Assembly: GCA_964483785.1 (NCBI GenBank) | Contig: CAZACW010000008.1 | Coordinates: forward strand, 1 to 60,972 | Source of the DNA: an uncultured Planctomycetales bacterium | GTDB lineage: Bacteria > Omnitrophota > Gorgyraeia > Zapsychrales > Fredricksoniimonadaceae | DNA length: 60,972 bases | Direction of reading: 5' to 3' | Shown here: piece by piece, positions 8,288 through 23,895 of the stretch | How positions within the stretch are numbered: position 1 is the first letter of the stretch | Layout: the number at the start of each line of letters is the position of its first letter | The notes under the pieces: model-generated | Database searches by the model: none | Seen by the model: the letters and a program-made list of their open reading frames with translations, nothing else | What the model was told of the DNA's origin: nothing | Program-made: the position numbers and the translations under genes

Positions 8288-9381
8288 AAATCCTATTTTT
8301 GACAACGCATTTTAACACCGGCGGCATCACCAGCTACGTGCTGACCCTGGGCGAGGTCTTGGTTAAGGCCGGGCACCAGGTTTGGGTGGCTTCCAGCGGC
8401 GGCGACCGCGTGCCGCAGTTGGAGGCGGCCGGGATCAAGCATGTCACCGTCAATATCCGCACCAAGTCCGAAGCGCATCCCAAATTGCTGTTGACTTTTG
8501 GGCCGCTCAAGCGTTTGATCCGCGCCGAAGGCATGGATATTCTCCATGCCCAGACGCGGGTCACCCAGGTGCTTGGTTTTTTTCTGGCCCGCGCAACGGG
8601 CGTCAGCCTGATTACGACCTGCCATGGTTTTTTTCGTCCCCGCTGGTTTCGTAGAACCTTTCCCTGCTGGGGCTCGGCCGTGATTGCCATCAGCAAACCT
8701 GTGGCCCGCCATTTGATCGAGGATTTTTCCGTGCCTGCGGCACAGGTCCATACCATTGCCAACGGGATTGATCTTAAACGCTTTGCCATGACGGATGAAC
8801 AGAAGCGCCGCCATGAGCGTCAGCATTTGGGTCTGCAGGCCTCGCCTGTCATCGGCATCATCGCGCGGCTCTCGGATGTCAAAGGGATCGATATTTTGAT
8901 CAAGGCCATGCCGCGGGTATTGAAAGAATACCCCGGGGCCGTTGCGGTGATCGCGGGCCAGGGGCCGGAAGAGGCCTATTTAAAAAAATTGACCCTGGAT
9001 TTGAGGCTGACGGAGCATGTGCTTTTTAGGGATTTCATCGATGAGCCCCAGGACCTTTTATGCGCCTTTGATGTTTTTGTCATGCCCTCCTTGATGGAAG
9101 GCCTGGGATTGTCGGTGATCGAGGCCCAGGCCTGCGGCATTCCGGTTATTGTTTCCAAGGTGGGCGGGTTGATCGATCTGGTCGAAGACGGCCAAAGCGG
9201 GTTTCTGACAGCTGTGCATGATCCCGAAGCTTTGGCCGGCCGCATCATCGCGATTTTGCGTGATCCTGATTTGGCCCAACGCATGGCGGCCAAGGCCAGG
9301 ACAAAGGTGGAACACCATTTTTCCGTCGGACTGATGCTGATGAAGACCCTGGACGTGTATGAACAAAATTCTCGTCGTTAA
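8284..9381 (+). CDS. GT4 family glycosyltransferase
   Basis: 365 aa. It starts MKILFLTTHFNTGGITSYV and carries the EGLGLSVIEAQACGIPVIVS motif. Its start overlaps the upstream stop by 4 bp. Confidence 0.85.
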   Translation: MKILFLTTHFNTGGITSYVLTLGEVLVKAGHQVWVASSGGDRVPQLEAAGIKHVTVNIRTKSEAHPKLLLTFGPLKRLIRAEGMDILHAQTRVTQVLGFFLARATGVSLITTCHGFFRPRWFRRTFPCWGSAVIAISKPVARHLIEDFSVPAAQVHTIANGIDLKRFAMTDEQKRRHERQHLGLQASPVIGIIARLSDVKGIDILIKAMPRVLKEYPGAVAVIAGQGPEEAYLKKLTLDLRLTEHVLFRDFIDEPQDLLCAFDVFVMPSLMEGLGLSVIEAQACGIPVIVSKVGGLIDLVEDGQSGFLTAVHDPEALAGRIIAILRDPDLAQRMAAKARTKVEHHFSVGLMLMKTLDVYEQNSRR

Positions 9382-10366
9382 CATCAACTGGCTGGGGGAC
9401 GCGGTTTTTTCCCTGCCTGTGTTTAAGGCGCTCAAAACCACCTATCCGCGGGCGTGCATCACCTGTTTGGGGGTACCCAGGGTGAAGGATGTCCTGGATT
9501 ACTGTCCTTATGTAGATGAATTCATCCTCTATGATGAGCGTGGAGAGCATCGCACGCCCTGGGGCAAATGGTCCTTGATCAATAATCTTAGCAAGGAAAA
9601 ATTTGACGCGGCCTTTTTATTGCACCGTTCCATGACGCGGGCCTTGATGGTGTATCTGGCCGGCATTCCCTTGCGCATCGGCTACAGCAAGACCCAGGGC
9701 CTGCTGACCCATCCCGTGGTCATGAATCCCGAGGAAGTCCATCGCTGTGATTTTTATTTGAAGGTGCTGGAAGGCTATGGGGTCAAGATCTTGGACCGCG
9801 CCTGTGAATTGAGACTTAAGCTGCCGGACATTCAGTCCTTGGATGACAAATTAAGCAGGGCCGGCCTGGGTCCTGAAGAGCCATTGATCGTGCTTAACAG
9901 CGGCGGCAACTGGGACCTTAAGCGCTGGAGCCCGGAATCCTTTGCGGCCTTGGCCAAAAGGCTCAGTGAAATTGATCCATGCAAGATCGTCCTTTCCGGC
10001 GCACAGAAGGACAGGGCATTATGCGCGCGCATTGCCGAGCTCTCCGGGGACAAGGCCGTCAGTTTGGCCGGCGAGACCAGCTTGGGCGAATCCCTGGCGC
10101 TTTATAAAAGGGCCAAGGTCCTGATTTCCGCGGATTCCGGCCCATTGCATTTGGCGCATAGTGTCGGCGGGGATGTGATCGGCATTTTCGGGCCGACCCG
10201 GCCAGAGATCACCGGGCCGCGCGGAACAGGCCGTTCGCGGATCCTTTTTAAAGAGGTAGGGTGCAATAAGGCGCCTTGTTATCATTTGGCCTGCGGCCGC
10301 AATGTCTGCATGCAGGCGGTGACGGTGGATGATGTCCTTGAAGCTTTCCAAAAATTCCAGCCCTAA
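9359..10366 (+). CDS. GT9 family glycosyltransferase (LPS heptosyltransferase-like)
   Basis: 335 aa. It has ILVVNINWLGDAVFSLPVFKALK at the N-terminus and ISADSGPLHLAHSVG near the C-terminus. Confidence 0.85.
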   Translation: MNKILVVNINWLGDAVFSLPVFKALKTTYPRACITCLGVPRVKDVLDYCPYVDEFILYDERGEHRTPWGKWSLINNLSKEKFDAAFLLHRSMTRALMVYLAGIPLRIGYSKTQGLLTHPVVMNPEEVHRCDFYLKVLEGYGVKILDRACELRLKLPDIQSLDDKLSRAGLGPEEPLIVLNSGGNWDLKRWSPESFAALAKRLSEIDPCKIVLSGAQKDRALCARIAELSGDKAVSLAGETSLGESLALYKRAKVLISADSGPLHLAHSVGGDVIGIFGPTRPEITGPRGTGRSRILFKEVGCNKAPCYHLACGRNVCMQAVTVDDVLEAFQKFQP

Positions 10367-11324
10367 ACGCATCTTGGTGATCAGCCAGACCAATATCGGG
10401 GACGTGGTGCTGACCTGTCCGGTCATCGATATTTTGTGCCGCGATTACCCTAAGGCCCGGATGGATGTGGTCATCGGCCCCAAGGCCGCGTCCTTGTTTG
10501 AGGGGAATCCTCATTTCGGCGTGAAGGTGTACAACAAGCATGCCGGCCTTGCGGGACAGATCACCTGGTTTCAAGAGCTTCAGCGCAATCATTATGATTG
10601 TGTGGTGGATTTGCGCAGGACAGCCTTAGGATTTTTTCTGATGCCGCGGTATGCGGCCCCGGTTTTTTTTCAATCCCATCAGGCGCTGGCAGGGCACAAG
10701 AAACAGATGCATCTTGACCGCCTGCGCCAGGTCCATGCCTTTGACGGGCCCGCGGCGCAAAAATCAGCTGTCGTGACTACACGAGACGATGAAATATTTT
10801 TCGAGGGCGCGGTGGCCCCGGCCCTGGCAGGCAGGTCCTTTGTGGTCATGGCCCCTGGCGCTGCCTCCTCGGAAAAACGCTGGCACGGCCAGGGCTTTGC
10901 GGCCGTGGCAGACCGCGTTTCCGGCGCGCATAAGATCGTCTTTGTGGGGGATACGCAAGATGCCCCAATCGTTGAGGAGATCCAATCCCAAATGAAATCC
11001 TCCTCGCTGTCCTTGGCCGGTAAAATCAATCTGCGCCAATTGGCCTATGTCTTAAAGCAATGCGCCTGGGCCCTGACCCATGACAGCGGGGTCATGCATC
11101 TGGCCTGTTATCTGGATACCCCGGTGATTTGCTTGTGGGGGCCTACCAACATGGAACGCTATGCGCCGTGGTCCGCTCAATCCGTGGTTGTCAGGCGCAA
11201 CGCAGATTGCCCGCGCTGTCAGGCGCCTCAGGCCAAGGCCGCGCATAACTGCATGTCCCTCATTGAGGTGGAGGATGTGATGAAAGCCATACGCAGCTTG
11301 AATGGCGGCGGAGCGGTTCTCTAA
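10329..11324 (+). CDS. GT9 family glycosyltransferase (LPS heptosyltransferase-like)
   Basis: 331 aa. It has ILVISQTNIGDVVLTCPVIDIL and THDSGVMHLACYLD. The exact start is uncertain because it overlaps the upstream gene. Confidence 0.8.
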   Translation: MMSLKLSKNSSPKRILVISQTNIGDVVLTCPVIDILCRDYPKARMDVVIGPKAASLFEGNPHFGVKVYNKHAGLAGQITWFQELQRNHYDCVVDLRRTALGFFLMPRYAAPVFFQSHQALAGHKKQMHLDRLRQVHAFDGPAAQKSAVVTTRDDEIFFEGAVAPALAGRSFVVMAPGAASSEKRWHGQGFAAVADRVSGAHKIVFVGDTQDAPIVEEIQSQMKSSSLSLAGKINLRQLAYVLKQCAWALTHDSGVMHLACYLDTPVICLWGPTNMERYAPWSAQSVVVRRNADCPRCQAPQAKAAHNCMSLIEVEDVMKAIRSLNGGGAVL

Positions 11325-11325
11325 T

Positions 11326-12336
11326 ATGAAAACATTTGGGAATATCCTTATTGTCCGCACCGACCGCATCGGCGATGTGGTCTTGACCACACCGGCCTTC
11401 AAGGCCCTGCGCCGGGCCTATCCTGCGGCGCGCATTTCCGTATTGGTCGCAGAGGCCACGCGGGATTTGGTCCAGGGCAATCCTTACATCGATGAGGTCT
11501 TGACAGATGACCGTCAAGGACAGCATCGAGGCCCATTGGGTCTCTTGCGTTTGGTCAGGCAGATCCGCTCCAAAGCTTTTGACCTTGCCATTATTTATCA
11601 TACCAAACGAAGGTATAATCTGGCTTGTGCCTTGGCCCAAATTCCTGTGCGTCTGGGCTATAAAAATGAAAAATGGGGATTTTTTCTGACCATGCCTCTT
11701 AAAGATACAAGGCCTTCAGGCCAAAAACATGAGGCCCAGTATTGCCTGGATGTTTTGAAGGCCCTTGGCATTGAGAATGACAGTTTGGACCTTTTTGTCC
11801 CGTTGCAGAAGGAGGCTGAAACCTGGGCGCTGTCCTGGATGCAGGGAGAGGGGCTGCAAAACCACGGATTTATCGTGGTTCATCCAGGCTCTTCGGATCC
11901 GGCCAAATGCTGGCCGCCGGCTGATTTTGCCTTGCTCATGGACCGGTTGATCGAACAATACGCGGTGAAAATTATCTTGATAGGATCTGCGCCGACCTTG
12001 CCCGTGGCTGAAGAAATTCTGCGCCTTATGCGCCGGCAGTCCCAGGTCATCAATAGGACCGGTAAGACAAGCCTGGCCCAGACGGTGAGCCTGCTGCGCA
12101 GGGCCAGCCTGTTAATATCCAATGATTCCGGGCCCGTGCATTTGGCAGCAGGGGTCGGCACAAGCGTGATTTCCCTGTTTTTGCGCAATCAGCCTGGGAT
12201 CAATCCCGGAAGATGGAGGCCGCTGGGCCCCAAAAGCCATTTCCTTTGCGGCGACCCGAAACCTTTCAAGGCCGAAGATGTCCTTCATCTGGCCCATCAG
12301 CTATTTCAAAAAAACAATCAATACGAAATATTTTAA
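11326..12336 (+). CDS. GT9 family glycosyltransferase (LPS heptosyltransferase-like)
   Basis: I chose the ATG at 11326, which lies 2 nt after the upstream TAA (MKTFGNILIVRTDRIGDVVLTTPAFKAL). SNDSGPVHLAAGVG is near the C-terminus. Confidence 0.85.
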   Translation: MKTFGNILIVRTDRIGDVVLTTPAFKALRRAYPAARISVLVAEATRDLVQGNPYIDEVLTDDRQGQHRGPLGLLRLVRQIRSKAFDLAIIYHTKRRYNLACALAQIPVRLGYKNEKWGFFLTMPLKDTRPSGQKHEAQYCLDVLKALGIENDSLDLFVPLQKEAETWALSWMQGEGLQNHGFIVVHPGSSDPAKCWPPADFALLMDRLIEQYAVKIILIGSAPTLPVAEEILRLMRRQSQVINRTGKTSLAQTVSLLRRASLLISNDSGPVHLAAGVGTSVISLFLRNQPGINPGRWRPLGPKSHFLCGDPKPFKAEDVLHLAHQLFQKNNQYEIF

Positions 12337-12350
12337 AAAATTGGGAAAAA

Positions 12351-12388
12351 AATTGGGACACATTGAATTAATTCAATGTGTCCCAATT
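12351..12388. terminator. Bidirectional terminator-like palindrome between convergent genes
   Basis: The perfect palindrome AATTGGGACACATTGAATT|AATTCAATGTGTCCCAATT has A/T-rich flanks. It lies between the end of the GT9 operon (+) and the end of the surface protein gene (-). Confidence 0.7.
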
Positions 12389-12391
12389 ATT

Positions 12392-15300
12392 TTAAACCCC
12401 AGCGACACAGCTGGCGTTGCTTCCGCCGTTTGTCCCAACGCACGTCCATCCCCAGACGCCATTGTTACCGTACTCACCAACGCCATTCGTAGACAAGCTG
12501 CCCACAGCGCAGAGATTGGCGATCGGCTTTGTTGGTGTCATCACCCCATTGGCACTGCCGCAGGCGGCATTGACCGCTGATCCGCTCAAGGGGGCATTGG
12601 GCGCGCTCAATTGGCTGCCGGATGATGTCAAATCCATGTTGCTGCCGTAGGTCCATCCCGGATAATCGATCCCGTTATAAAGCCAGCCAGAGGCTGCTCC
12701 GGCATAGGTCCCGGAGGCATTGATCCAGTTGTTGTCGGCAATGCCTGATGTGTTGGGAGTGCCCCCCAAATGAAAGACGGAACTCACAGGATTAGGCGGT
12801 GTTTGCCCGGGATTCAGTGTTGCGATGATGACATTGTTATTGACGCTTGCATTGGTGATGGAACCTGTAAGATTATTGTACATCTGGATCATTTCACCCG
12901 GCTGCAGGATCCAGTCGTTCTGGACAACCGTATTGAAGGCAAATTGAGGGTTATTGGACGGGCCGGCCATCCATTGGAGAAAATTCAAATGCGGGCAATT
13001 TGAAATACCTGTGCAAGGCGTCAAGGCCCCATTTTCCAACAGATTATATTGGTAGATCAGCGATCCGCCGTTACCCAGGGAAACAAAATGCTGAGGCGTG
13101 TTTTTGATCCAATTGTATTCAATGACGGCCCCAATTCCGTTGAGATTGATGATTTCGCCGAATGAGGTGTCTCCATTGGCCCCGCCGCCGTCCATGGTGT
13201 TGTAGGCGATATAGATATTGCTGGTCCCGGCGGCTTGATTCACAGGGACCCCGCCTAAGAAATAATTGCGTACAACGCTGATATTGGAGCCGGCGACATA
13301 CAGCTGAAAGCCGCCCCCTTGTACGCTAAAGTCATAACCGTCGATGGTGCAATTGTCGCTGACGTAAATTTGTTTCGATGTGTTAAAAACCGCGCAGGCA
13401 GGCAAGGCCCCCGGCGCTGTCGGGTCTTTGAGCGCCAGCCCCGCAGGCACACCGACGGCGTAATCAACGCCGGCCACGTTCCATGCCGGACGCTTGGCAT
13501 AGGCGCTGAATAAGGTGGGATGCTGGGCGTTATTACTTCCGCCAGAAGCGGCTGAACAGCCGTCAGCATAAGCCGTGCCTTGAGGACACGCATTATTGTT
13601 CGCCTGGCTGAAGGCAGCTGCCACGGCGTGGTTGGAAGTGATGTTGTTTAAAGTAAAAACATTGTTCGTCAGGACGGCGGGCAGGCCATCAATGGTCAGA
13701 TTGGCCGTATATCCGCCGGCAGGCGCCAATGTAAAGGTCTGGCTGGCCCCATAATTGACCGTGACATTGCTTGAAGGGCTCATGGTGCCGTTGCTGCCGA
13801 CGCTGACCGTGAGGGTATCTGTCTGTGCAGCGAAATTGGCGATTACGGTGTGGACCGCGATCACATTCGTCAGGGTGTAGGTATTGTTGCTTAACGTGAC
13901 GTTTGTTCCGTCGACACTAAGACTGGGCGTATATCCGGCCGCTGGTGTCAGCGTAAAGGTCTGGCTGGCCCCATAATTGACAACCACACTGCCGGTAGGG
14001 CTTATGGTCCCGTTATTGCCCCCATAGACCGTCAAGGTCACGGTCTGGATAATGGGGACCACGGACAGCGGGGAAAGGGCCGCGTCTCCCGGCATGTCGC
14101 TGTACTTGTTAAGAAAGCCCAGGCTTGTCACACCTGCCTGCTCGGTGCGGAAGGTATAGTTGGTGGCCAAGGCCACGGCTGCCCCGCCCGCGGGTGTGGC
14201 CGTAACAGAATATGTCCCCGCAGGGATATTGACTGTGAATTTGATAGTATACGCCGTACCGGCTGTATAGGCCATGGCAGCGTCTGCGGTATAATTGCTG
14301 CCGTTACGCACAACAATGGTACCGTTGTTGCTGAAAAGGACAATGGCCGCCATGTTTGTATAAGCCGAAGCCGCGGCGGATGAAAGACCGACCACGGTAT
14401 CTTCGTTATTGGCCGATGGAACAGCCGTGACCGTAGCAGTAAAAGATCCGGATTGGGCCGTGAAAGGCGTGCTGCTCCAGACACTGCTGTAAGCGATGCA
14501 CGAGGCATTGGAGCCGCCGTTGGTCCCGTTGCAGTTCCAAGTCCACGGACCGGCAGCGCCGCCGGATACGCTGGAAGCATTGCCGCTGCTGCACAAATTG
14601 CTCGTCGGGGCGCTCGCGGCTTGGCTCAGGTTCGCCGTATCGCAAGCACCATTGACAGGAGGCACTGGAACAAAGCCGGCCGCGACCGCATGACTGGAGG
14701 TAATGTTGCTTAAGGTATAACTGTTGTTGCTTAAAGTCACTGCTGTCCCATCAACCGTCAAGCTGGCAGTATAGCCCGCAGCCGGCGTCAAGGAAAAGGT
14801 CTGGCTGGCCCCATAGTTGACCGTGACATTGCCCGACGGGCTGATCGTACCATTGCTTGCAGCAGAAACAGTTAAAGTCTCTGACTGTATTGTAAAACTC
14901 GCAGTGATCGTATGATTGGCTGTAATGTTGCTTAAAGTGTAGGCATTATTGTTCAAAGAAACATTGGTGCCGTCAACGCTTAAGCTGGCATTATAACCGG
15001 CATTAGGCGTCACAGTAAATGTCTGACTTGTTCCAGCGTTAACAGTAAGCATGCCTGAAGGGCTGATCGCTCCATTACTTCCGGCACTGACAGTCAGCGT
15101 TTCTGTCTGTGTTTGAGTTGTTGCGCTGACACTGGTTGATTGCGCCGAAACATTGCCCGCCGCATCATAGGCTGCTACCGTATAAGAGTAAGTAGTTGAA
15201 GCTGACAAAGCACTGTCTGTATAGGACGTTGTGGTTGAACTGCCTACCTTTGTTCCATTACGATAAATATTGTATCCCGCGACCCCGACATTATCAGAGG

Positions 15301-15940
15301 AAGCATTCCAGCTTAAGTTAATCTGGCTGGTGGAAACGGCCGTAGCCGTCAAACCTGCCGGCTGGCTGGGCGGCGTTGTATCTGCGGGCGCATTTAAACT
15401 GATATTGGAAACCGCAGCATCACCAACGACATCGCTGTATTTATTGATATACGCCAAACTGGTGATCTTGGCTTGGGGTGAACGGAATGCGTAATTGGAC
15501 GCCAGCGTTGTTTGCGCACCGGTTGTTGATACATAAACACTGTAGGTATGCTTTGCCATGTTGACGGCCATTTGAAAATGATACGTTGTGCCCGCTGTAT
15601 AATGATAGGTCACTGCGGCACTGTAGCCGTTAAGATTCATGATATCGATATTGCCGTTGCTGTTGAAGCGTACAATGGCGGCAAGCCCAGAATACGTTGA
15701 GGCAGGCGTGTTGGAAAGACCTATAACCTGGTCTTCATTGTTGACGCAAGGTGAAGCATTAAAATATAGATTGAATGTGCCGGTCTGCGCAGTATAAGAA
15801 GAGTTGGCCCAGGTTTGGGAACTGACCAAACATTGGCCCATGTTGACTGAGGCCGCGGCATTTAAGGCAGGAGCGCAAAGAAACAGTAAAACAGCTGCAA
15901 AAATATTTCTGATGGAGAATACTTTGGATAAAGTTTTCAT
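12392..15940 (-). CDS. Large secreted surface protein with a duplicated lectin/LamG-like module, FN3, four InlB-B-repeat-like Ig modules, a right-handed beta-helix and two 4-Cys modules
   Basis: 1182 aa. Domains by aa position:
- 1-30: signal peptide (MKTLSKVFSIRNIFAAVLLFLCAPALNAAAS).
- 44-183: module A; 488-627: its paralog A'.
- 186-275: FN3-like (LTATAVSTSQINLSWNASSDNVGVAGYNIYRNG).
- Four ~70-aa repeats (TLTVSxGSNGTISPSG..VNYGASQTFTLTPAAGYTxSLxVDGT..LSNITSxHAV).
- About 855-1075: beta-helix-like (NYFLGG, IAYNTMDGGG).
- 432-481 and 1127-1178: Cys modules. Confidence 0.85.
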   Translation of the reverse strand: MKTLSKVFSIRNIFAAVLLFLCAPALNAAASVNMGQCLVSSQTWANSSYTAQTGTFNLYFNASPCVNNEDQVIGLSNTPASTYSGLAAIVRFNSNGNIDIMNLNGYSAAVTYHYTAGTTYHFQMAVNMAKHTYSVYVSTTGAQTTLASNYAFRSPQAKITSLAYINKYSDVVGDAAVSNISLNAPADTTPPSQPAGLTATAVSTSQINLSWNASSDNVGVAGYNIYRNGTKVGSSTTTSYTDSALSASTTYSYTVAAYDAAGNVSAQSTSVSATTQTQTETLTVSAGSNGAISPSGMLTVNAGTSQTFTVTPNAGYNASLSVDGTNVSLNNNAYTLSNITANHTITASFTIQSETLTVSAASNGTISPSGNVTVNYGASQTFSLTPAAGYTASLTVDGTAVTLSNNSYTLSNITSSHAVAAGFVPVPPVNGACDTANLSQAASAPTSNLCSSGNASSVSGGAAGPWTWNCNGTNGGSNASCIAYSSVWSSTPFTAQSGSFTATVTAVPSANNEDTVVGLSSAAASAYTNMAAIVLFSNNGTIVVRNGSNYTADAAMAYTAGTAYTIKFTVNIPAGTYSVTATPAGGAAVALATNYTFRTEQAGVTSLGFLNKYSDMPGDAALSPLSVVPIIQTVTLTVYGGNNGTISPTGSVVVNYGASQTFTLTPAAGYTPSLSVDGTNVTLSNNTYTLTNVIAVHTVIANFAAQTDTLTVSVGSNGTMSPSSNVTVNYGASQTFTLAPAGGYTANLTIDGLPAVLTNNVFTLNNITSNHAVAAAFSQANNNACPQGTAYADGCSAASGGSNNAQHPTLFSAYAKRPAWNVAGVDYAVGVPAGLALKDPTAPGALPACAVFNTSKQIYVSDNCTIDGYDFSVQGGGFQLYVAGSNISVVRNYFLGGVPVNQAAGTSNIYIAYNTMDGGGANGDTSFGEIINLNGIGAVIEYNWIKNTPQHFVSLGNGGSLIYQYNLLENGALTPCTGISNCPHLNFLQWMAGPSNNPQFAFNTVVQNDWILQPGEMIQMYNNLTGSITNASVNNNVIIATLNPGQTPPNPVSSVFHLGGTPNTSGIADNNWINASGTYAGAASGWLYNGIDYPGWTYGSNMDLTSSGSQLSAPNAPLSGSAVNAACGSANGVMTPTKPIANLCAVGSLSTNGVGEYGNNGVWGWTCVGTNGGSNASCVAGV

Positions 15941-15970
15941 ATATAAAGCCCTCTATAAGGCAAACAAGTT

Positions 15971-16005
15971 AATAATAAACCCGGCATGTGAAAAACACAC
16001 CCGGG
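15971..16005 (-). terminator. Intrinsic terminator hairpin (putative riboswitch expression platform)
   Basis: On the minus strand, the hairpin CCCGGGUGUG-UUUUU-CACAUGCCGGG is followed by UUUAUUAUU. It lies between the GEMM-I aptamer and the SD (GAGGG) / ATG of the surface protein gene. Confidence 0.65.
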
Positions 16006-16017
16006 CAATCCTCCGTT

Positions 16018-16121
16018 GTTCTTTGCAGTTCGGCTGTCTTTTCCCATACAAAATCAAGGGATTTAGACCCGATCCTTTGCGTCCTAAGGTTTCCCTCAGT
16101 TTGCCCTAAATTCTAAAGAAC
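16018..16121 (-). promoter_or_regulatory. c-di-GMP-I (GEMM-I) riboswitch aptamer
   Basis: The minus-strand RNA reads GUUCUUU AGAAUUUAG GGCAAAC UGAGG GAAA CCUUA GGACGCAAAG GAUCGGGUCUAAAUCCC..GGGAAAAGACAGCCGA ACUGC AAAGAAC.
- It carries the class signatures GGCAAAC, a hairpin capped by a GAAA tetraloop, GACGCAAAG, and CGGGUCU...AGACAGCCG.
- A 7-bp P1 helix (GUUCUUU/AAAGAAC) closes the fold.
- The motif order and spacing match my recollection of the V. cholerae Vc2 aptamer. Confidence 0.85.
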
Positions 16122-16318
16122 TTATACTACAATATAAAAGTAACATATGTTTGGGGATGGTGCAAATCAGGGGATGTCAAAAAATATGTAACTACATATA
16201 AATAAACAATTTATGAAAATAATAAATTTGTGTTAAGGCCCAAGATAATTAGGGAACGCACCTATGGAACACACAAAAATTGGCGCAAATAGCATTCGGC
16301 AGGTATACTTAGGCTATA

Positions 16319-19300
16319 ATGCTAAAGGATATAAATCTAAAAATTACTATAACCTCAGGGCTTCTTATTGCCTTTTTGGCAAATACGTTTGGGATCTTTT
16401 CCGTGGCCCAAGCGCAGGAATTCATGTTGCCCAAGCCAGGGGTCATGGTGCCGTTAAGCCCTGCCTTTAACCCTCCGGTCCTTAAAGGCCTCAAAGTCCA
16501 TCCAAACAATCCATTCAGATTTGATTTTATTCTGGATAAAGGCGATAGCCGGTTAGGCAATGACCAGCTTAAAACCGAATCAACCAGGCTGATTAAATAT
16601 TTTCTGGCCTCTTTGACCATTCCTGAAAAAGACCTTTGGGTCAATCTCTCGCCATACGAAAAAGACCGCATTATCCCGCAATCATTTGGCTTAACGGAAA
16701 TGGGCCGTGATCTTTTGGCTGAGGATTACATGCTTAAACAAATTACAGCCAGCTTGATTTATCCAGAAGGTGAAACCGGCAAGCGATTTTGGCGGCGAGT
16801 TTATGTCGAAGCAGCCAAAAGATTTGGGACAACGAATATTCAAGTGAATACTTTCAACAAGGTGTGGATCGTTCCGGAAAAAGCGGTTGTCTTTGAGAAT
16901 GCCAAGGCAAAAACAGCTTATGTGGTTGAATCAAGATTAAAAGTCATGCTTGAACAGGATTATCTTTCACTTGAAAAACACGAGGGTATACAAAGCATTG
17001 CTTCTGTGACTAAGAATACAAATCAAATAGGCAGCCAAATTGTCCGAGAAATTGTGATTCCTGAATTGACCAAGGAAGTCAATCAAGACAAAAATTTTTC
17101 TCAACTGCGCCAAGTCTATCATTCATTGATTCTGGCCACCTGGTACAAGAAGAAAATCAAAGACAGTATTTTAGCGGCGGTCTATGAAAACAGAAATAAA
17201 GTCGCCGGTGTTAACAACGACGATCCAAAGGAAAAAGAACGGATTTATGAACGGTACTTAGAAGCTTTTAAAAAGGGGTCATATAACTATATTAAAGAAG
17301 AAATCGATCCGTTAACACAGCAGAGTGTCCCTAGAAAGTATTTTTCAGGGGGCCTGACAATGGATCAACAGGCCATGGATAAAGCAATGATTATAAAAGA
17401 TATATTCCGGCCAAGCATGTTAAAGAAAAGTCCAATTAGCTCAGGGATGATGTTAATTGGGGCTTCTATGTTCATCGCTTCACAAGTTAATTCTATTCAA
17501 TATCCAAATCTGGCGGGAGTGGGTGGAGCGTTAGGTGTGGTCTTGTATTTTGTGTCGTATTGTATGGTTTTTGTGGTTCCAAAAATAAATCCTTATCATA
17601 TTATGACATCGAAGCAAGCGCGTTATAGCTCAACGGGGGCCAGAGAATTAACAGAGGCTGATTTTTATTTAATAACGTATGGAAGAATTAATTTTTCAGA
17701 GGCTTTAAAAAATAGAAATTTCGAGCAGGCGGGACAAATCGTTCGAGCTTTGAATACATTGATAATGGACAATCCATACGTTGGAACTTCCGATTTAAAA
17801 GAGGAAATCAATTCAATGTACGGTGAATTGTGGGATGCTGAGCATTCCGATAGCCGTGCCGGGACGGATTATAATGGATATTACGCCACCATAGGGGTTG
17901 AACGTCATGCATCCCCTGAAGTCATCACCGGTACCTATAGAAGGAAGGCCCGTAGAGTTCATCCTGATGTTCCAGGGACCGGATCTGCCCCGGAGTTTTT
18001 GAAGCTCAAAGAAGCTTATGATGTTTTAAACGACCCGGAAAAAAGAAAGATGTACGACCAAGGCAAATGGCCAAAGAAAGAAGATCAGGCGCAGACAATT
18101 GATGCGGCGATGAATGTGGATAAAAAAGCCATTGCAGCAACCGAGGCAACATCTGGAAAAACAGCCTTATTTGAGAAATTTTTAGAAGATTTGAGAGAGC
18201 AATTAGCAGGTAGTTATTTGACAATGCCGTTAAGGGATGGGCGTAATTTGACATTGCAATTGCAGTTAAATTCCGGGGGTTGGTTTTTTGCTGTCGATGT
18301 CTATCCATTTGACATTAAAAATGAGACGGAAATCAGAATAGGAAGAGGCCAATTTTCTGCATTGGAACCAGTATTCAATATTGAACCATCAAATCATTTT
18401 TTAGCTTCAAGAAAGACAATAGGGAAAATACTTTTTATGGTTAGAGTGGATGCACAAGGTAACCCCATTATACTGTTTGAAGAAAACCAGCCTAGTTTGG
18501 GTTTTAGAATGATCCCTTTAAAGCAACAGGAATTGTTTTTCAATTGGATTGAAGTTGTTCAACAGAGGATCATGAACATAGCGTATCAACTGGGTGCAGT
18601 CAATTTTTACGCGCATACTGCTGAGTACATAAAAGAATCATATCCATCGATTAGCGAAGTTAATTTGGACTTAAATTACAGAAGGGTTAATAGTGTCAAG
18701 AAGGGTTGGAAAAAAACGGAGTTGGACATTTTTAACAATGGCAAGAAACAAGAAGTATGGCGCTATACAGGTTTTGATACAGCCATGAATTCATTATTAA
18801 ATGATGCGCTTAGGGCCTTAAAGGCACAGCAAAATGATCAGTTTAAAACCAAAATAGTGGCATTCATGGAGCAATTGATTGTTGAACAGAAAGAGCACGG
18901 TATCAGCCACTGGCAAGTGGTAGAACCCTTCAAGGACCTGATTGAGTACGTTGAAAATCCGTCGACCCCAGTTGCCCAATTGCGATTTTTGGAAGAAATT
19001 TCCCAACAGCTTCGTCCATATCAAGCTGATTTGCGCATCGCCGCTCCTTTGGGAATATTGGTCTCCAGCATTAAACGCTATAGAACCAAGGAATGGGGTG
19101 GGATGAATGATTTAAATGCTTTAACAAATCTTAACGCACTTTTGGATAATCAATTGTTGTCCGCTTATCAAAGAAAGATTGTCAGTGATGCCAGGGCAGG
19201 TTTAGCGGATGGTTCATGGCACCCGGGAATTAACCCATTGTCCCAAATGTTGGATGAATACCGTAGGATGATCCTTTTAGAAGATGGTTTGGATTTTCCG

Positions 19301-21889
19301 CCGCGTACCCGCAGAGATATTTATTTGCCTATAAGCGCTCAAATGAGGGAATTTTTATCAGGGCAACTCAACCAAGATATGCCGGGGAGTGTTTTTTTAA
19401 CTGACCAGTCGGGACGTACTTTGCTATATCAATTTCACCCCATTGCTGCGGTGAGTCAGCCTTATATAGGAATGATTATTCATAAAAGTGGGATTCCTCT
19501 TAGAATGGCCATCAAAGATAAGACTTTTAAGCAAAGGGATTATGACCATGTTAGCCATTTAGGAGGGACCAAATTATTATCAATTCTTAATTGTCCCGTG
19601 GCGTGGGTTTTCGAGGGGGCACGCTATGTTTATATCAGGGAAATCAGAGACAGGGAAATTACCGATTATATAAATGAAGATTTTCCGACCGCATCCCCAG
19701 AAATACATAAACGGTTTTTCTTTGCTTTGGGGGTGGCTATGTCAGAGGCATATATTTTGGGCATGTCCGACCGGAGAAGGAACTTGATTGTAAGTTTGAG
19801 GCGATTGGCGGAATTTGACACCAATTCTTTGAGTGAGGCTGGAAGCAGGGCCATTTTTAATATTGACCGTGAGAATGTCTTAACACCCAAGCAGATATCA
19901 AGACCGCCAATGGAAGACATTGACGAAGCTGCTAGTATGCCTAACGGATGGAGAAGGTGGGTTCCTCCTATCGAGAGACCAATATTTGATGATAATTTGT
20001 CATATTATCTCGATGGCTTTAAACAAGGTTTTCGGTCTATCCAAGCCTATTTTAGGGTCCAACAGAATGTCATTAAAGAAAAGATCATGGGAATAGCCCA
20101 AAGCGAGGGCAGTCCTTATGGGGCCAATATTATTGAACGCCTTAAACTTTCAGACCCCAATATTGACGCATTAGCGGATAAAATTAAAGCAAAAGCAGAA
20201 GCTCTTTTTAAATTACCTGATAGTCCAGATTCTGATGATGAAGCTATGACCGTTACGGAATTATTGAGCTTAGACCCTGTTAAAGCAGATATACAATTAC
20301 ATCTCTTCAGTTCACATAATTTGTGGGCGCTTAGAAATAAATGGTTGGAAGAATATGAACAAACACAGAGTACTGACACTCTCCGTGCGTCCAGGGTCCT
20401 ATTTGCATATATTTTTAAGAGTGCATTAGGCGCCGAACAGTCCAAAAAACTATCCAAACTGGTTGATTTGTTAGAGTCAGCCAATGATCCGGAAATTGAA
20501 TTGCGGAATGGGGCTGTTAGTTTATCTGAATTGAAAGGGTGGCAAGAAGATTTAGAGCCATTATTTTCAAAACTGTATAAATACGGCGTCCGCGAGATGT
20601 CCTATACCGTGGAACTCACCGTTGATTATATTAAGAATGAAATAAATCGCAGAGAACCTTCCCATGATGAGCCACAGCTCGAACGGTTAAAACAACTTGC
20701 AATGGCAGGGCCCATAGACAGAGAAAAATTAAAGCGATATCTTGTGGCTAATGTTTCTTATAGCGAATTGGATATGTGGTCCTATTTTTTATCGCAAGGC
20801 AGGTCTGGTTTAAGGCCCCAAAAGATTGGTTTTGATGAGTACCGTCAACGGATGAGAGACGCATACGAGGTTGTTGTTCAGGCCTTAAGCCGGGTTCTTT
20901 ATAATCATTATATGGAGTTTGAACCCGTCAACGATGATGAAGGTAAAAAAAGGCTTGAGACCAAAGCCAATGAAAATTTGATCCATAAAGGATATGATTT
21001 AGTATCCAGTTCTGAGATAAAATCGGATGCGGCGATGAATGCAGAGATTACTCAACTGTTGCAGGAAATGCGTGAAGGCGCAAGGGGTGATGCAATAATG
21101 GCATTTACCAGATTGAAGCAATTGGATCCGAGATATAACAACATGATTCCCGTAGACATGTTGTTTAGGGTCATGTTAGAGGAGCAAAAAGAGAATAAAA
21201 ATGTTAATGTGGTCATGGATTTCCCTCGTGAAAATGTATTTGTCGAGAGACGCAAAACGGGCCGGGGAACGTTTGAGTCGAGTGTCATCAATGAACTTAT
21301 TATCAATGCTTTCAAATATACCCCAGAACATGGGACAATCACCGTAAAATTGCGTCAAGAAGGCGGCCGTGTCCTGTTTTCAGTTAAGGATACGGGCATT
21401 GGTATTCCAGATGCAGATAAAGAAAAGGTTTGGCGAGATTTATACCGGGCGCCAAATGCCATAGCAGTACATCGTGGAACGGGAACTGGATTATATAGCA
21501 TGCGTTTGGTCATTCAACGTGATTATGATGGGACCATCAGCTTTGAGAGCAAGGAGGGCGAAGGAACGACTTTTACTGGCAATATCGCCAAGGGAAATGT
21601 TCCGGATCCAGCGATGATTCCAAATGGCAGGGATGTAAACCGAAGATTGGTTCGGGAGAGTTTTACTCCCGCTAAAGGCGGTATCGATCTTACCTCAGAT
21701 CAAGCTCTGACTGTCCAAAATAACGGGCAGGCCATCAAATTTCATGTTGATCCCGCGCAACTCAAAGAGCTCCAAAATGCCCCTGGTTTTGTGCCGGTCA
21801 TTATAGATTTTCAACCAATGACCGACATTCGTTTTTGGCTCGGCCTTGATGATCACCAGCCCGCTGGTCATCCCATAACCAGTATTTAA
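16319..21889 (+). CDS. Giant (1856 aa) multidomain membrane protein: signal peptide, conserved N-module, TM segment(s), J-domain, long unknown region, orphan HATPase_c domain, conserved C-module
   Basis: - Signal-peptide-like N-terminus (ITSGLLIAFLANTFGIFSVAQAQ).
- Hydrophobic stretch at aa ~375-421.
- J-domain at aa ~519-582 (YYATIGVERHASPEVITGTYRRKARRVHPDV...LKEAYDVLNDPEKRKMYDQG, with HPD at 548-550).
- GHKL/HATPase_c boxes at aa ~1654-1756: N box INELIINAFKY, G1 DTGIGI, G2 GTGTGL.
- No H-box precedes the ATPase.
- The gene is AT-rich compared with its neighbours. Confidence 0.85.
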   Translation: MLKDINLKITITSGLLIAFLANTFGIFSVAQAQEFMLPKPGVMVPLSPAFNPPVLKGLKVHPNNPFRFDFILDKGDSRLGNDQLKTESTRLIKYFLASLTIPEKDLWVNLSPYEKDRIIPQSFGLTEMGRDLLAEDYMLKQITASLIYPEGETGKRFWRRVYVEAAKRFGTTNIQVNTFNKVWIVPEKAVVFENAKAKTAYVVESRLKVMLEQDYLSLEKHEGIQSIASVTKNTNQIGSQIVREIVIPELTKEVNQDKNFSQLRQVYHSLILATWYKKKIKDSILAAVYENRNKVAGVNNDDPKEKERIYERYLEAFKKGSYNYIKEEIDPLTQQSVPRKYFSGGLTMDQQAMDKAMIIKDIFRPSMLKKSPISSGMMLIGASMFIASQVNSIQYPNLAGVGGALGVVLYFVSYCMVFVVPKINPYHIMTSKQARYSSTGARELTEADFYLITYGRINFSEALKNRNFEQAGQIVRALNTLIMDNPYVGTSDLKEEINSMYGELWDAEHSDSRAGTDYNGYYATIGVERHASPEVITGTYRRKARRVHPDVPGTGSAPEFLKLKEAYDVLNDPEKRKMYDQGKWPKKEDQAQTIDAAMNVDKKAIAATEATSGKTALFEKFLEDLREQLAGSYLTMPLRDGRNLTLQLQLNSGGWFFAVDVYPFDIKNETEIRIGRGQFSALEPVFNIEPSNHFLASRKTIGKILFMVRVDAQGNPIILFEENQPSLGFRMIPLKQQELFFNWIEVVQQRIMNIAYQLGAVNFYAHTAEYIKESYPSISEVNLDLNYRRVNSVKKGWKKTELDIFNNGKKQEVWRYTGFDTAMNSLLNDALRALKAQQNDQFKTKIVAFMEQLIVEQKEHGISHWQVVEPFKDLIEYVENPSTPVAQLRFLEEISQQLRPYQADLRIAAPLGILVSSIKRYRTKEWGGMNDLNALTNLNALLDNQLLSAYQRKIVSDARAGLADGSWHPGINPLSQMLDEYRRMILLEDGLDFPPRTRRDIYLPISAQMREFLSGQLNQDMPGSVFLTDQSGRTLLYQFHPIAAVSQPYIGMIIHKSGIPLRMAIKDKTFKQRDYDHVSHLGGTKLLSILNCPVAWVFEGARYVYIREIRDREITDYINEDFPTASPEIHKRFFFALGVAMSEAYILGMSDRRRNLIVSLRRLAEFDTNSLSEAGSRAIFNIDRENVLTPKQISRPPMEDIDEAASMPNGWRRWVPPIERPIFDDNLSYYLDGFKQGFRSIQAYFRVQQNVIKEKIMGIAQSEGSPYGANIIERLKLSDPNIDALADKIKAKAEALFKLPDSPDSDDEAMTVTELLSLDPVKADIQLHLFSSHNLWALRNKWLEEYEQTQSTDTLRASRVLFAYIFKSALGAEQSKKLSKLVDLLESANDPEIELRNGAVSLSELKGWQEDLEPLFSKLYKYGVREMSYTVELTVDYIKNEINRREPSHDEPQLERLKQLAMAGPIDREKLKRYLVANVSYSELDMWSYFLSQGRSGLRPQKIGFDEYRQRMRDAYEVVVQALSRVLYNHYMEFEPVNDDEGKKRLETKANENLIHKGYDLVSSSEIKSDAAMNAEITQLLQEMREGARGDAIMAFTRLKQLDPRYNNMIPVDMLFRVMLEEQKENKNVNVVMDFPRENVFVERRKTGRGTFESSVINELIINAFKYTPEHGTITVKLRQEGGRVLFSVKDTGIGIPDADKEKVWRDLYRAPNAIAVHRGTGTGLYSMRLVIQRDYDGTISFESKEGEGTTFTGNIAKGNVPDPAMIPNGRDVNRRLVRESFTPAKGGIDLTSDQALTVQNNGQAIKFHVDPAQLKELQNAPGFVPVIIDFQPMTDIRFWLGLDDHQPAGHPITSI

Positions 21890-22187
21890 ATAACAGGGGA
21901 TGCGGCCCTGATCTTTCGGTTTGCCGGATTTTTATCTTTTAGTGAAATGCTCAGGTTCTCTCCGTAGCTTTAAATATCTCCTTTATCGACAACGTCCAAA
22001 GGATCATTAATTTCATTGTTGCCGGTTTTTTCTTATATATTTCCTTGGGGATTATTTTTTGAATTATTACCATAGTCTTATGGTTGATCACTAAGGCCTT
22101 GTTGGCTCATTAAAGGGTCGTTTTAAGGCCCTGGCTGGCCTTCCGAGGGGCCTTCCAGGGTCTAACAGCCAAATTTATGTATGTTGC

Positions 22188-22216
22188 TTGACAAATATCT
22201 CAATATGAGATATACT
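22188..22216 (+). promoter_or_regulatory. sigma70-type promoter with overlapping palindromic operator for higBA
   Basis: TTGACA (22188-22193), a 17-nt spacer, then TATACT (22211-22216). The palindrome ATATCTCA-ATA-TGAGATAT (22195-22213) covers the spacer and the -10 element. The SD AGGAGG lies upstream of the ATG at 22240. Confidence 0.7.
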
Positions 22217-22239
22217 CTCATCAGATAGAGGAGGTAAAA

Positions 22240-22530
22240 ATGCATGTTATATCAAGAAGGGCTTTACAGGTCTTTTGGGAGAAAAATCCAGACAGCGAAG
22301 GGTCTCTTAAAGCGTGGTTTAAGATCGTCAGTCTGTCGGAATATCAAGGGTTTAATGATTTGAAAAAGACCTTTGGCTCGGTAGATAAAGTAGGAAGCAA
22401 GTATGTGTTTAATATAGGTGGCAATAAATATCGGTTGGTTACAGCTATTCATTTTAATACTGGAAGAATATATGTGCGAGCTGTCTTGACACATAAGGAG
22501 TATGACAAAGAGGAGTGGAAAAATGGTTAA
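22240..22530 (+). CDS. higB: Type II toxin HigB (RelE-fold mRNA interferase)
   Basis: 96 aa. MHVISRRALQVFWEKNPDSEGSLKAWFKIV...GGNKYRLVTAIHFNTGRIYVRAVLTHKEYDK is the typical HigB-toxin family pattern. The toxin gene comes before the antitoxin gene, as in higBA loci. Confidence 0.85.
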   Translation: MHVISRRALQVFWEKNPDSEGSLKAWFKIVSLSEYQGFNDLKKTFGSVDKVGSKYVFNIGGNKYRLVTAIHFNTGRIYVRAVLTHKEYDKEEWKNG

Positions 22531-22927
22531 AATAATCAATGAACCAGTTTTGAAAAAGACCTGGCCTACAGTTGAGCAATATCTTTCCATTCATACAAAG
22601 CAAGATTATGAAAATGCCATCATTGTGCTTAATCATTTGTTAGATGAAGTGGGTGATAATAAAGATCATCCGTTGTTTGGTTTTATAGAAATTTTGGGTA
22701 TTGTTATAGAAAACTATGAAACAGAACATCATGATTGGGAAGATGCTTCAGGAGTTGATGTTCTTAAATATTTAATGGAAGAACACAATTTAAATCAAAC
22801 GGACCTTTCTGAAATAGGTTCTCAAGGTGTTGTTTCAGAAATTTTGAATGGTAAGCGGCAATTAAATGTTAATCAAATTAAAAAATTGGGTGAAAGATTC
22901 CATGTAAAACCGGCAGTTTTTTTATAA
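22523..22927 (+). CDS. higA: Antitoxin HigA, XRE-type HTH
   Basis: The ATG at 22523 overlaps the higB stop; an alternative in-frame ATG lies at 22502. The C-terminal HTH is LKYLMEEHNLNQTDLSEIGSQGVVSEILNGKRQLNVNQIKKLGERF. Confidence 0.8.
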   Translation: MVKIINEPVLKKTWPTVEQYLSIHTKQDYENAIIVLNHLLDEVGDNKDHPLFGFIEILGIVIENYETEHHDWEDASGVDVLKYLMEEHNLNQTDLSEIGSQGVVSEILNGKRQLNVNQIKKLGERFHVKPAVFL

Positions 22928-23025
22928 TTTAGGATAAATATATGCTATATTTTAGATGCCCTCAAAAAATCCGTATACACCCGCCAAATTTATTGTATAA
23001 TTCGACGTCAGTTTAAGCGATTTAC

Positions 23026-23101
23026 GCTGGCTTAGCTCAGTTGGTAGAGCAGCTGATTTGTAATCAGCAGGTCGGGGGTTCGAAGCCTCTAGCCAGCTCC
23101 A
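23026..23101 (+). tRNA. tRNA-Thr (anticodon UGU)
   Basis: 76 nt. Hand-folded cloverleaf: acceptor GCTGGCT/AGCCAGC, anticodon stem GCTGA/TCAGC, loop TTTGTAA, T-loop TTCGAAG, encoded CCA. Confidence 0.9.
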
Positions 23102-23146
23102 TATATGGATTCCCGGCAAAATCATCGGGAACGACGGGACTATTAC

Positions 23147-23227
23147 GGGCAGGTACCCAAGTGGTCAACGGGGGCAGACTGTAAATCTGCTGCGCTAGCT
23201 TCGGAGGTTCGAATCCTTCCCTGCCCA
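23147..23227 (+). tRNA. tRNA-Tyr (anticodon GUA)
   Basis: Acceptor GGGCAGG/CCTGCCC, anticodon stem GCAGA/TCTGC, loop CTGTAAA, a long variable arm, T-loop TTCGAAT, discriminator A. CCA is not encoded. Confidence 0.9.
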
Positions 23228-23372
23228 TATTATAAAGAATTACTATAGTTGCTGTGGAAGGATTCGAATGAGCCCTGCTTAGAAACCTCGACGAATAGGA
23301 GAGGTTTCTAGGGCGAGTGGCCGACCCAAAGCGAAGCGAGCCGCCAGAAGCGGCGAGGCGAGCGCAGGGCGC

Positions 23373-23407
23373 CGAATCCTTCCCTGCCCATATTAAAGAA
23401 TTACTAT
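23373..23407 (+). repeat. Direct duplicate of the tRNA-Tyr 3' end plus its downstream flank (att-like)
   Basis: CGAATCCTTCCCTGCCCATATTA-AAGAATTACTAT repeats 23210-23246 with one 2-nt indel. The duplicate contains only the 3' strand of the T-arm and the acceptor, so it is not a functional tRNA. Confidence 0.85.
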
Positions 23408-23412
23408 GCCAT

Positions 23413-23688
23413 ATTAATAAACGTGAGTTCGACATATTGAGAAAGGCATGCAAGGATACGTTTTTGATAAGACGATGCGCTTTTCCCCCCCAGGCACGCA
23501 GGATACCATCACAACCCCGGGGGTTGTGATGGTATCCATGCGTACCGTCGGGTGGCCGAGGGAGGGGCATCGCCCGTTGAGCGAGGCTTTTGCGAGCGAA
23601 ACGGGGATACCCGAGGCCAGGACCCGACGGTCTGCGAAACATATCCTTGCATGCCTATAGATAGCGTTATGTCGAACCGGCGTTAATG
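23413..23688. repeat. ~276-bp nested palindromic (MITE-like) element between tRNA-Tyr and tRNA-Gly
   Basis: - It has imperfect ~45-bp terminal inverted repeats. The left arm is ..GTTCGACATATTGAGAAAGGCATGCAAGGATA.. and the right arm is ..TATCCTTGCATGCCTATAGATAGCGTTATGTCGAAC..
- The central perfect palindrome GGATACCATCACAACCCCGGGGGTTGTGATGGTATCC (23501-23537) is a REP-family core.
- A further inverted repeat, CCGTCGGG/CCCGACGG, lies inside. Confidence 0.75.
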
Positions 23689-23711
23689 ATTATATGCACA
23701 TAGCGAGAGAC

Positions 23712-23785
23712 GCGGGAGTAGTTCAGTGGTAGAACTCCAGCCTTCCAAGCTGGTAACGACGGTTCGATTCCGTTCTCCCGCTCCA
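23712..23785 (+). tRNA. tRNA-Gly (anticodon UCC)
   Basis: 74 nt. Acceptor GCGGGAG/CTCCCGC, anticodon stem CCAGC/GCTGG, loop CTTCCAA, T-arm GACGG-TTCGATT-CCGTT, encoded CCA. Confidence 0.9.
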
Positions 23786-23845
23786 ATTGATGAAATTATA
23801 AGCAGTTCGACGGTTTCCGCCGGAGGCGGATCAGCCTTTGGCTGA

Positions 23846-23866
23846 CGATTCCGTTCTCCCGCTCCA
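23846..23866 (+). repeat. Direct duplicate of the tRNA-Gly 3' end (att-like)
   Basis: The 21-nt CGATTCCGTTCTCCCGCTCCA is identical to 23765-23785. The two copies are separated by a 60-nt insert that contains two small hairpins (CCGCCGGAGGCGG and TCAGCCTTTGGCTGA). Confidence 0.85.
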
Positions 23867-23895
23867 AAAGTAAACTATACATACCAAAGGAGATT

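Follow-up and report, generated by a model that had tools for sequence, protein, structure and literature searches.

Which signal is read by the long 5' leader of the gene for an 1182-residue secreted protein in an Omnitrophota-like uncultured bacterium, and does that signal switch the gene on or off? The gene lies on the minus strand of contig CAZACW010000008.1, here called the window (the whole stretch of 60,972 nucleotides that was analysed). An earlier reading made from the letters only, the sequence-only reading, had placed a class I cyclic di-GMP riboswitch (c-di-GMP-I, also called GEMM-I) with a terminator in this leader. Both parts of that proposal were confirmed. Judged by its sequence, the leader element is a genuine class I c-di-GMP riboswitch aptamer, far beyond chance resemblance. 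The leader as a whole is probably a canonical riboswitch of this class that works by transcription attenuation, in which ligand-induced termination would repress the gene.

The aptamer was identified with cmscan, run on both strands of the full 61-kb window against the 4227 families of Rfam 15. The c-di-GMP-I family RF01051 was matched at 16115-16021 (-) with 64.5 bits, well above the gathering score of 35, and with an E-value of 2.3e-10. This is the Infernal comparison that had been proposed for the locus. The alignment spans the complete model (positions 1-87 of 87), the score lies above that of every other family in the clan, and RF01051 is the sole non-tRNA match in the window. The sequence elements that had been listed for the leader, together with the downstream hairpin, the Shine-Dalgarno (SD) sequence and the ATG, were all found on the minus strand at the positions given in this and the following list. 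The aptamer is built as follows.

16021-16115 (-): c-di-GMP-I (GEMM-I) aptamer, defined by the RF01051 match and by compensatory changes in P2 and P3 across 35 related leaders
16105-16099 (-): GGCAAAC, located by sequence
16099-16084 (-): P2 hairpin CUGAGG-GAAA-CCUUAG, six pairs including one G-U, with the GAAA loop at 16093-16090
16084-16075 (-): GGACGCAAAG, located by sequence
16075-16027 (-): P3, with the 5' element UCGGGUCU at 16072-16065 and the 3' element AGACAGCCGA at 16039-16030

In the Rfam alignment the junction is formed by the pairs G16104-C16079 and C16103-G16080. The ligand-contacting positions (Vc2 numbering) correspond to G16105 (G20), A16078 (A47) and C16025 (C92). G16105 is the unpaired G preceding the GC junction pair, A16078 is the first unpaired A past the junction pairs, and C16025 is the C following the final P3 pair. 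A GNRA-capped P2 (the GAAA tetraloop) and the receptor nucleotides of P3 were both found: the receptor-side consensus nucleotides CUAA / A-GAC-AG are present, and GUCUAAA...AAAGACAGCC fits the upper-case consensus positions. Of the two guanines of c-di-GMP, one is known to be read by G20 at its Hoogsteen edge and the other to be paired with C92 in Watson-Crick fashion (PMC6140456). Because position 20 is a G and both A47 and C92 are canonical, the expected ligand is c-di-GMP and not cyclic GMP-AMP (cGAMP), and we infer that the aptamer binds it.

The same features are shared with the RF01051 consensus and with the Vc2 aptamer of V. cholerae, namely GGCAAAC, the GAAA-capped P2, the GGACGCAAAG core, the P3 receptor nucleotides and the G20/A47/C92 pocket. 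Like Vc2, the window aptamer lies in the 5' leader of a gene whose product is a secreted or surface protein. The window differs in the base of P3, which contains purine-purine mismatches (common to the metagenomic subfamily introduced below), in a longer loop at the distal end of P3, in a gap of 9 nt between G20 and the candidate P1 5' strand, and in its uncultured, Omnitrophota-like host.

Comparative evidence had to be gathered in an indirect manner. The protein has no full-length homologue and synteny is broken by an island, so relatives of the leader were sought by a DNA pattern scan of metagenomes, using the aptamer core and the unusual 'GGA' that follows GACGCAAAG. The scan returned 74 loci (L167-L240), mostly from peat, bog and fen samples, one of which also contains an Omnitrophota-like relative of the window. 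For the terminator scan 42 distinct leaders had enough flank; 39 were used for statistics and 35 were aligned. The 42 leaders share GACGCAAAGGAUCG(A/G)GCC...GGCAGUCGA(G/A)CUGC, and all ten GGAU-type leaders that were rescanned match RF01051 (48.8-62.5 bits). No relative scores higher than the window aptamer, in which all conserved positions are kept. From the alignment of 35 leaders RNAalifold recovered P2, P3 and the terminator stem, with double-sided changes in 20 of the 30 predicted pairs. In P2 all six variable pairs change on both sides. Several pairs of P3 do so as well; alignment columns 87/145, for example, are G-C in the window and A-U or G-U elsewhere. The covariation in homologous leaders that had been asked of the proposed helices was thereby found for P2 and P3.

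The direction of the switch is the second half of the question, and it turns on the elements between the aptamer and the gene.

15971-16008 (-): intrinsic terminator from a consensus scan, with the stem 16006-15979 (GCCCGGGUGUG-UUUUU-CACAUGCCGGGU) and the interrupted U-tract UUUAUUAUU at 15979-15971
16022-16050 (-): candidate antiterminator 5' strand (P3 3' strand, C92 and the start of the P1 3' strand), pairing with 16008-15983
12392-15953 (-): regulated gene, with the SD GAGGG at 15953-15949, the ATG at 15940 and the coding sequence 15940-12392 (1182 aa)

The terminator hairpin folds at -16.2 kcal/mol. It does not overlap with the aptamer, which ends at 16018 if P1 is included, while the terminator stem begins at 16006; therefore both can form together. 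A terminator-like hairpin with a U-tract was detected in 40 of the 42 leaders scanned, 45-70 nt past the aptamer, and its stem carries compensatory changes (two doubtful detections were dropped from later analyses). As the terminator is kept across the leaders, it is regarded as part of the device. In nearly all leaders the terminator 5' arm pairs best with the aptamer 3' end, that is, the P3 3' strand GUCGAGCUGC with C92, plus the tail. Divergent leaders keep this pairing with other sequences: it comprises 13 contiguous bp (-23 kcal/mol) in L185 and about 16 pairs in L199, and it is also kept in L198, L239 and L168. Over 13 representatives, aptamer ends pair better with the terminator arm of the same leader than with those of other leaders (permutation p = 0.0018, double-centred energies), and the window aptamer 3' end is the best of the 13 tested partners for the window terminator arm. 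For the window itself, RNAduplex gives -23.4 kcal/mol for 16050-16022 with 16008-15983 (z = -2.7, matched by 23/2000 shuffles), and 16008-15983 doubles as the antiterminator 3' strand.

Three pairings in the leader consequently depend on one another in a chain: that of the P3 5' strand with the aptamer 3' strand, that of the aptamer 3' strand with the terminator 5' arm, and that of the terminator 5' arm with its 3' arm. This chain, together with the absence of overlap between aptamer and terminator, points to an OFF arrangement. An ON design, in which the aptamer 3' strand would be the terminator 5' arm, was rejected, as the two do not overlap and the aptamer strand has no consistent complementarity to the 3' arm. 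The partners that the 3' arm would need in such a design were weak and inconsistent, with none consistent across the related leaders. Equilibrium folding was uninformative for the choice between ON and OFF, given that the terminator forms in both states for most leaders. Where forcing the aptamer fold had an effect, it raised the terminator probability (from 0.61 to 0.92 in the window) and never lowered it.

Two further candidates in this region were tried and rejected. The pairing of GGGCAA (16106-16101) with UUGCCC (16008-16003) as an antiterminator is reached by 232/2000 shuffles and is absent in L185 and L239. A leader peptide starting from the GUG at 16000 behind the SD-like GGAGGA was discarded, as the codon is ACG, AAG or AUA in relatives, with the terminator 3' arm compensating.

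The Cd1 element of C. difficile, in the flgB leader, is reportedly a c-di-GMP-I transcriptional OFF switch, in an account from Sudarsan in 2008. For Cd1 it was described that aptamer and terminator coexist and that the antiterminator competes with both and is only transiently stable, whereas in the pilM ON switch aptamer and terminator are mutually exclusive (PMC9262584). The likeness between the window and Cd1 (Landgraf 2022, PMC9262584) is threefold. Both have a non-overlapping, coexisting aptamer and intrinsic terminator, in both the antiterminator is composed of the aptamer 3' strand and the terminator 5' strand, and in both the terminator state is favoured at equilibrium, so that the decision must be kinetic. 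The differences lie in the gene (a large secreted beta-helix protein with carbohydrate-binding modules (CBM), as opposed to the flagellar genes behind Cd1), in the window antiterminator, which invades P3 besides the P1 3' strand, and in an extra complementarity to the ribosome-binding site (RBS). The window switch is predicted from its sequence.

The proposed course of regulation would be the following. The transcript from 16130 to 15941 (-) would form the 5' leader of the gene for the 1182-aa secreted protein. With c-di-GMP bound, the base of P3 and C92 would be locked within the aptamer. The terminator 5' arm, freed in this way, would pair with the 3' arm, and RNA polymerase would stop ahead of the gene (OFF). 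Without ligand, 16050-16022 would pair for a short time with the terminator 5' arm and loop (16008-15983) as these emerge, and once this antiterminator has formed, transcription would read into the gene. A secreted glycan-binding or glycan-degrading surface protein would thereby be made at low c-di-GMP. The earlier claim that production of the protein depends on c-di-GMP is retained as far as control by c-di-GMP is concerned, but the direction of that control is most likely repression, as suggested by the architecture and by the conserved complementarity between aptamer end and terminator arm (PMC9262584).

Repression is held to be the most likely sign with moderate confidence, on sequence logic, and several points weigh against it. 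Taken alone, the window antiterminator reaches moderate significance, with p between about 0.01 and 0.08 according to the segment chosen, and mismatches interrupt its duplex. At equilibrium and without ligand, about 15 kcal/mol separate the antiterminator from the more stable state with aptamer and terminator, and the OFF model therefore requires kinetic control. The U-tract of the window is interrupted (UUUAUUAUU), in contrast to the UUUUUU of most relatives, and termination may be inefficient for this reason. Related leaders of the main group sit before pilin-like genes, and pilin-like genes are induced by c-di-GMP in some bacteria. A last point arises at the ribosome-binding site, where the 5' half of the aptamer finds a second partner, in a complementarity that surpasses the antiterminator in strength and significance (z = -4).

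15947-15965 (-): RBS-proximal element, identified as a duplex of GUUUGCCUUA (15965-15956) with UAGGGCAAAC (16108-16099) and of UAGAGGGC (15955-15948) with GUUCUUUA (16121-16114)
within 15947-15965 (-): local SD hairpin GCCUU-AUAG-AGGGC, -5.5 kcal/mol

If both blocks formed in the ligand-free RNA, the SD would be masked, and the sign at translation would be opposite to the terminator logic. A net ON switch at the level of translation, with the same aptamer, would follow this line: without ligand, GUUCUUUA and UAGGGCAAAC would pair with GUUUGCCUUA-UAGAGGGC and mask the SD, whereas the ligand would hold these strands in P1 and the junction and so open the RBS. The terminator, with its weakened U-tract, would be leaky and of secondary importance. 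Such a switch is unlikely, but a good deal speaks for it. The bipartite duplex of 20 bp has an energy of -20.5 kcal/mol, which is matched by only 2/2000 and 4/2000 shuffles and by one other of about 6400 tiles of the window. When the full leader is folded to minimum energy, this duplex prevails (-58.9 kcal/mol, compared to -44.8 kcal/mol if the aptamer is enforced). The GUUUGCCUUA strand is specific to the window, while the adjacent RBS is common to L187 and L204, and the degenerate U-tract would fit a terminator of lesser weight.

The same pairing, however, is a property of the window and not of the subfamily. Its z-score is -4.07, against a family median of 0.01 over 39 leaders, by which a family trait was ruled out. 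A translational ON switch would also contradict the conserved OFF-type logic of the terminator. The block energies are unequal, with -12.2 kcal/mol for UAGGGCAAAC:GUUUGCCUUA and -7.7 kcal/mol for AAGUUCUUUA:UAGAGGGCUU. The latter, SD-side helix contains three G-U pairs and may have no more behind it than a strand rich in C and U facing an SD rich in A and G. Enforcing the aptamer does not free the SD in the prediction, as the SD then pairs within the local hairpin listed above. Finally, the first block alone (GGGCAAAC:GUUUGCC) would open the SD hairpin in the ligand-free RNA, which is consistent with OFF, and the switch would then be OFF at both levels.

A related proposal joins the two pairings as layers of one RNA, a Cd1-like OFF terminator and a window-specific RBS pairing, in a leader that belongs to an undescribed GEMM-I subfamily of which some members lack P1. 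We give this combination as a whole a rather low probability. If it held, transcription and translation would read the same aptamer, either both as OFF or with opposite signs, and in the latter case the protein would be expressed only within a certain range of c-di-GMP or when its level changes.

It is also conceivable, although improbable, that the aptamer is real and the expression platform behind it no longer switches effectively. The hairpin would then attenuate partially and constitutively, or serve as a structural element, in an island gene acquired recently. The terminator forms at equilibrium with or without the aptamer constraint, the U-tract is interrupted, and the window antiterminator is weaker than those of the relatives. 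The leader moreover looks like a mosaic, since its 5' part resembles L185 and L239 while its 3' part (terminator tail and RBS) resembles L187, the latter also resembling L204. The gene itself lies within a variable island. Genes 1983-12336 form the operon for the lipopolysaccharide (LPS) core, and housekeeping genes make up the remainder of the window. In L085, a syntenic relative, tRNA-Thr/Tyr/Gly and a GT2 gene come directly after the last GT9 gene of this operon, whereas the window carries about 10.7 kb (12337-23025) at that site, an insertion relative to L085. Other relatives have an IS66 transposase with DUF4143/DUF1016 genes (L080) or a 5049-aa protein (L082-L084) at the same site, so the stretch 12337-23025 looks like a variable island beside a tRNA cluster. 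Part of it (16001-24000) has a G+C content of 41-43%, compared to about 53% elsewhere. An orthologous leader could not be recovered by synteny: the relatives share the LPS operon, but none has an RF01051 match after the last GT9 gene. Against a platform that has ceased to switch stand the aptamer, preserved at all conserved positions and with a score as high as that of any relative, and its 3' end, which as noted outdoes the other 12 partners for the terminator arm. Dominance of the terminator at equilibrium, furthermore, is likewise reported for the functional Cd1 switch (PMC9262584).

A different ligand is very improbable. The aptamer would in that case sense another cyclic dinucleotide, such as 3',3'-cGAMP in the manner of GEMM-Ib, or some other ligand, by means of its odd P3 base. 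This base is indeed non-canonical in the subfamily (AGGAU...A(G/A)CU), with G.G or G.A beside A.A in the Rfam register and near the pocket. In an alternative register, however, it becomes mostly canonical (G-U, G-C, one mismatch and then 4 bp). In the cGAMP-sensing GEMM-Ib riboswitches an A replaces G20, while the window has a G at position 20 and canonical C92 and A47 (PMC6140456). Specificity for cGAMP was rejected on this basis, with G16105 standing where GEMM-Ib has adenine. The GEMM-Ib riboswitches of Geobacter (pilM, Gs1761) share the overall fold and the Rfam clan with the window, all are terminator-based, and those of Geobacter are often found upstream of pilus or surface-protein genes. 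They differ from the window, with its G20 and its terminator apart from the aptamer, in the A at the position of G20, in being ON switches and in having mutually exclusive aptamer and terminator. Membership in the variant families c-di-GMP-I-GGC (RF03167) and c-di-GMP-I-UAU (which we take to be RF03168) was likewise rejected, as RF01051 gives the best score in the clan and the pocket is G/A/C.

Chance resemblance without any riboswitch can practically be dismissed, given a full-length model match at E = 2.3e-10, the correct orientation and position directly upstream of a gene, and covariation across a family of related leaders.

With the OFF switch retained as the preferred reading, the outer parts of the leader can be considered.

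16018-16121 (-): candidate closing helix P1, GUUCUUU (16121-16115) with AAAGAAC (16024-16018), seven Watson-Crick pairs, -4.8 kcal/mol
16107-16124 (-): small 5' hairpin UAAGUUC-UUUA-GAAUUUA, -3.2 kcal/mol, found in every minimum-energy fold of the growing transcript
16137-16165 (-): promoter-like site located by sequence, TTGCAC at 16165-16160, a 17-nt spacer, TACTTT at 16142-16137 and TGn at 16145-16143

The 7-bp closing helix had been counted among the signature elements of the class. Its complement is present, but it is reached by 191/5000 dinucleotide-preserving shuffles (the flanks are AU-rich) and is not a conserved feature. Among the related leaders, L239 can form an equivalent helix of 6 bp (CGUUCU/AGAACG) and L185 a poor version of it, while the main group lacks one. 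P1 is hence plausible but weakly supported. The small 5' hairpin rivals P1 for the GUUCUUU strand, and L185 and L239 could form a corresponding hairpin from UUCU and AGAA.

In the window, ATATGTTACTTT, with its -10 at 16142-16137, is the homologue of an extended -10-like motif of the relatives. ATATG(T/G)TATA(C/G)T is found at the same relative position in L185, L239 and L187, and TGnCATACT in the main group. The window transcript would on this evidence start near 16130. In L171, L173, L179, L191 and L209 the conserved -10-like TGnCATACT lies just 6 nt before G20. These five transcripts may start at about G20, and no P1 5' strand would then be left in them. An alternative upstream -10 is possible as well, for example TGTATAAT in L171.

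The protein under control has a typical signal peptide, two CBM-like domains, an fn3 domain, InlB B-repeats, a beta-helix and two Cys-rich modules. The next gene is convergent to it; the transcript is therefore monocistronic and the leader controls one gene. Pfam matches comprise fn3, a sialidase-like CBM (twice, weakly) and the InlB B-repeats. The C-terminal domain of about 306 residues (about 807-1112, nt 13522-12605) had no match by PDB sequence search or in Pfam, but it belongs to a family of right-handed beta-helix proteins of about 350 aa. A homologue-based AlphaFold2 model of this domain reached a predicted local distance difference test (pLDDT) score of 91.5. The nearest solved folds found by Foldseek are PL6 alginate lyases, GH136, pectin methylesterase, chondroitinase B and phage tailspike depolymerases, all of them weak matches (E at least 1.5e-3, template modelling (TM) score at most 0.49). 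A full-length relative of the protein was found neither in GTDB genomes nor in a set of 5.8 billion proteins, which gave domain-level matches only, and the contig index does not contain its exact sequence.

These features suggest a secreted protein made for glycan binding and possibly for glycan cleavage. The sequence-only reading had called it adhesin-like. This is one possibility, but the nearest folds of the beta-helix are polysaccharide lyases, hydrolases and depolymerases, and the protein resembles a secreted glycan-binding or glycan-degrading protein just as much. The Cys-rich module of about 50 residues occurs twice, at 14650-14495 and 12566-12395 (-), corresponding to residues of about 431-482 and 1126-1182. 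It follows the pattern C..x..NLC....G.W(T/G)W.C.GTNGGSNASC and has no Pfam match.

The REC-EAL phosphodiesterase that had been mentioned alongside the leader is present at 52902-54029 and is the sole c-di-GMP gene seen in the window. It is situated 37 kb away among unrelated housekeeping genes, and the gene neighbourhood offers no support for a functional link to the leader. As to the host, the heptosyltransferase adjacent to the regulated gene has a top match of 71% identity, and the named relatives among the matches listed are all metagenome-assembled genomes of Candidatus Omnitrophica/Omnitrophota (66%), a phylum from which the window probably derives.

The riboswitch is a new case of a well-known class that an automated Rfam scan would find, and knowledge of the class itself is unchanged by it. 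The points of note are the host phylum, the likely OFF sign, the metagenomic subfamily and the RBS complementarity. The result places c-di-GMP-responsive RNA control in an Omnitrophota-like genome, from an uncultured and poorly understood phylum, and ties it to a large secreted beta-helix/CBM protein on a variable island. If the OFF sign is correct, the protein would belong to a programme of low c-di-GMP (non-sessile, dispersal or attack) rather than to an adhesion programme, and a glycan-degrading role would fit better than that of an adhesin. The roughly 40 related leaders provide a comparative data set for Cd1-type switches and possibly for GEMM-I aptamers without P1.

Some observations on the related leaders remain. 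The subfamily has a non-canonical P3 base, AGGAUCG(A/G)GCC...GUCGA(G/A)CUGC. Between aptamer and terminator a purine-rich, SD-like linker is conserved (16009-16014 (-) in the window), which reads GGAGGAUUG here and ACGGUGAUU in most relatives. The CGG part of the linker pairs with the terminator 5' end in the antiterminator, and GGUGAU is conserved as well. The genes behind the main-group leaders encode small proteins with prepilin-type N-termini (..GFTLVEVLVS..), and other leaders of the subfamily precede secreted proteins beginning with ..DGSQTLTGHVP.. or very large secreted proteins (1224-2375 aa). A second group, of marine or aquatic origin (L176, L182, L188, L206 and similar), carries a long G-rich P3 insertion, GGA(A/G)CGGGUCCUC...GAUAGCCGCACUGCC. 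In this group L206 matches RF03167, the c-di-GMP-I-GGC variant, exactly at the gathering score, and L176 matches RF01051. A group I intron (RF00028, 59.8 bits) was matched in L171 at 2940-3198 (+), about 1.7 kb from a riboswitch-controlled gene.

Within the island of the window, an open reading frame of 1856 aa at 16319-21889 (+) runs divergent from the riboswitch gene in the low-GC stretch. It contains a DnaJ domain (521-580) and a HATPase_c domain (1655-1753), has a weak PADLOC match to PDC-M43B (E 7.7e-5) and was probably acquired horizontally. The spacer between tRNA-Tyr and tRNA-Gly (23228-23711) measures 484 nt in the window, compared to 6 nt in L085.

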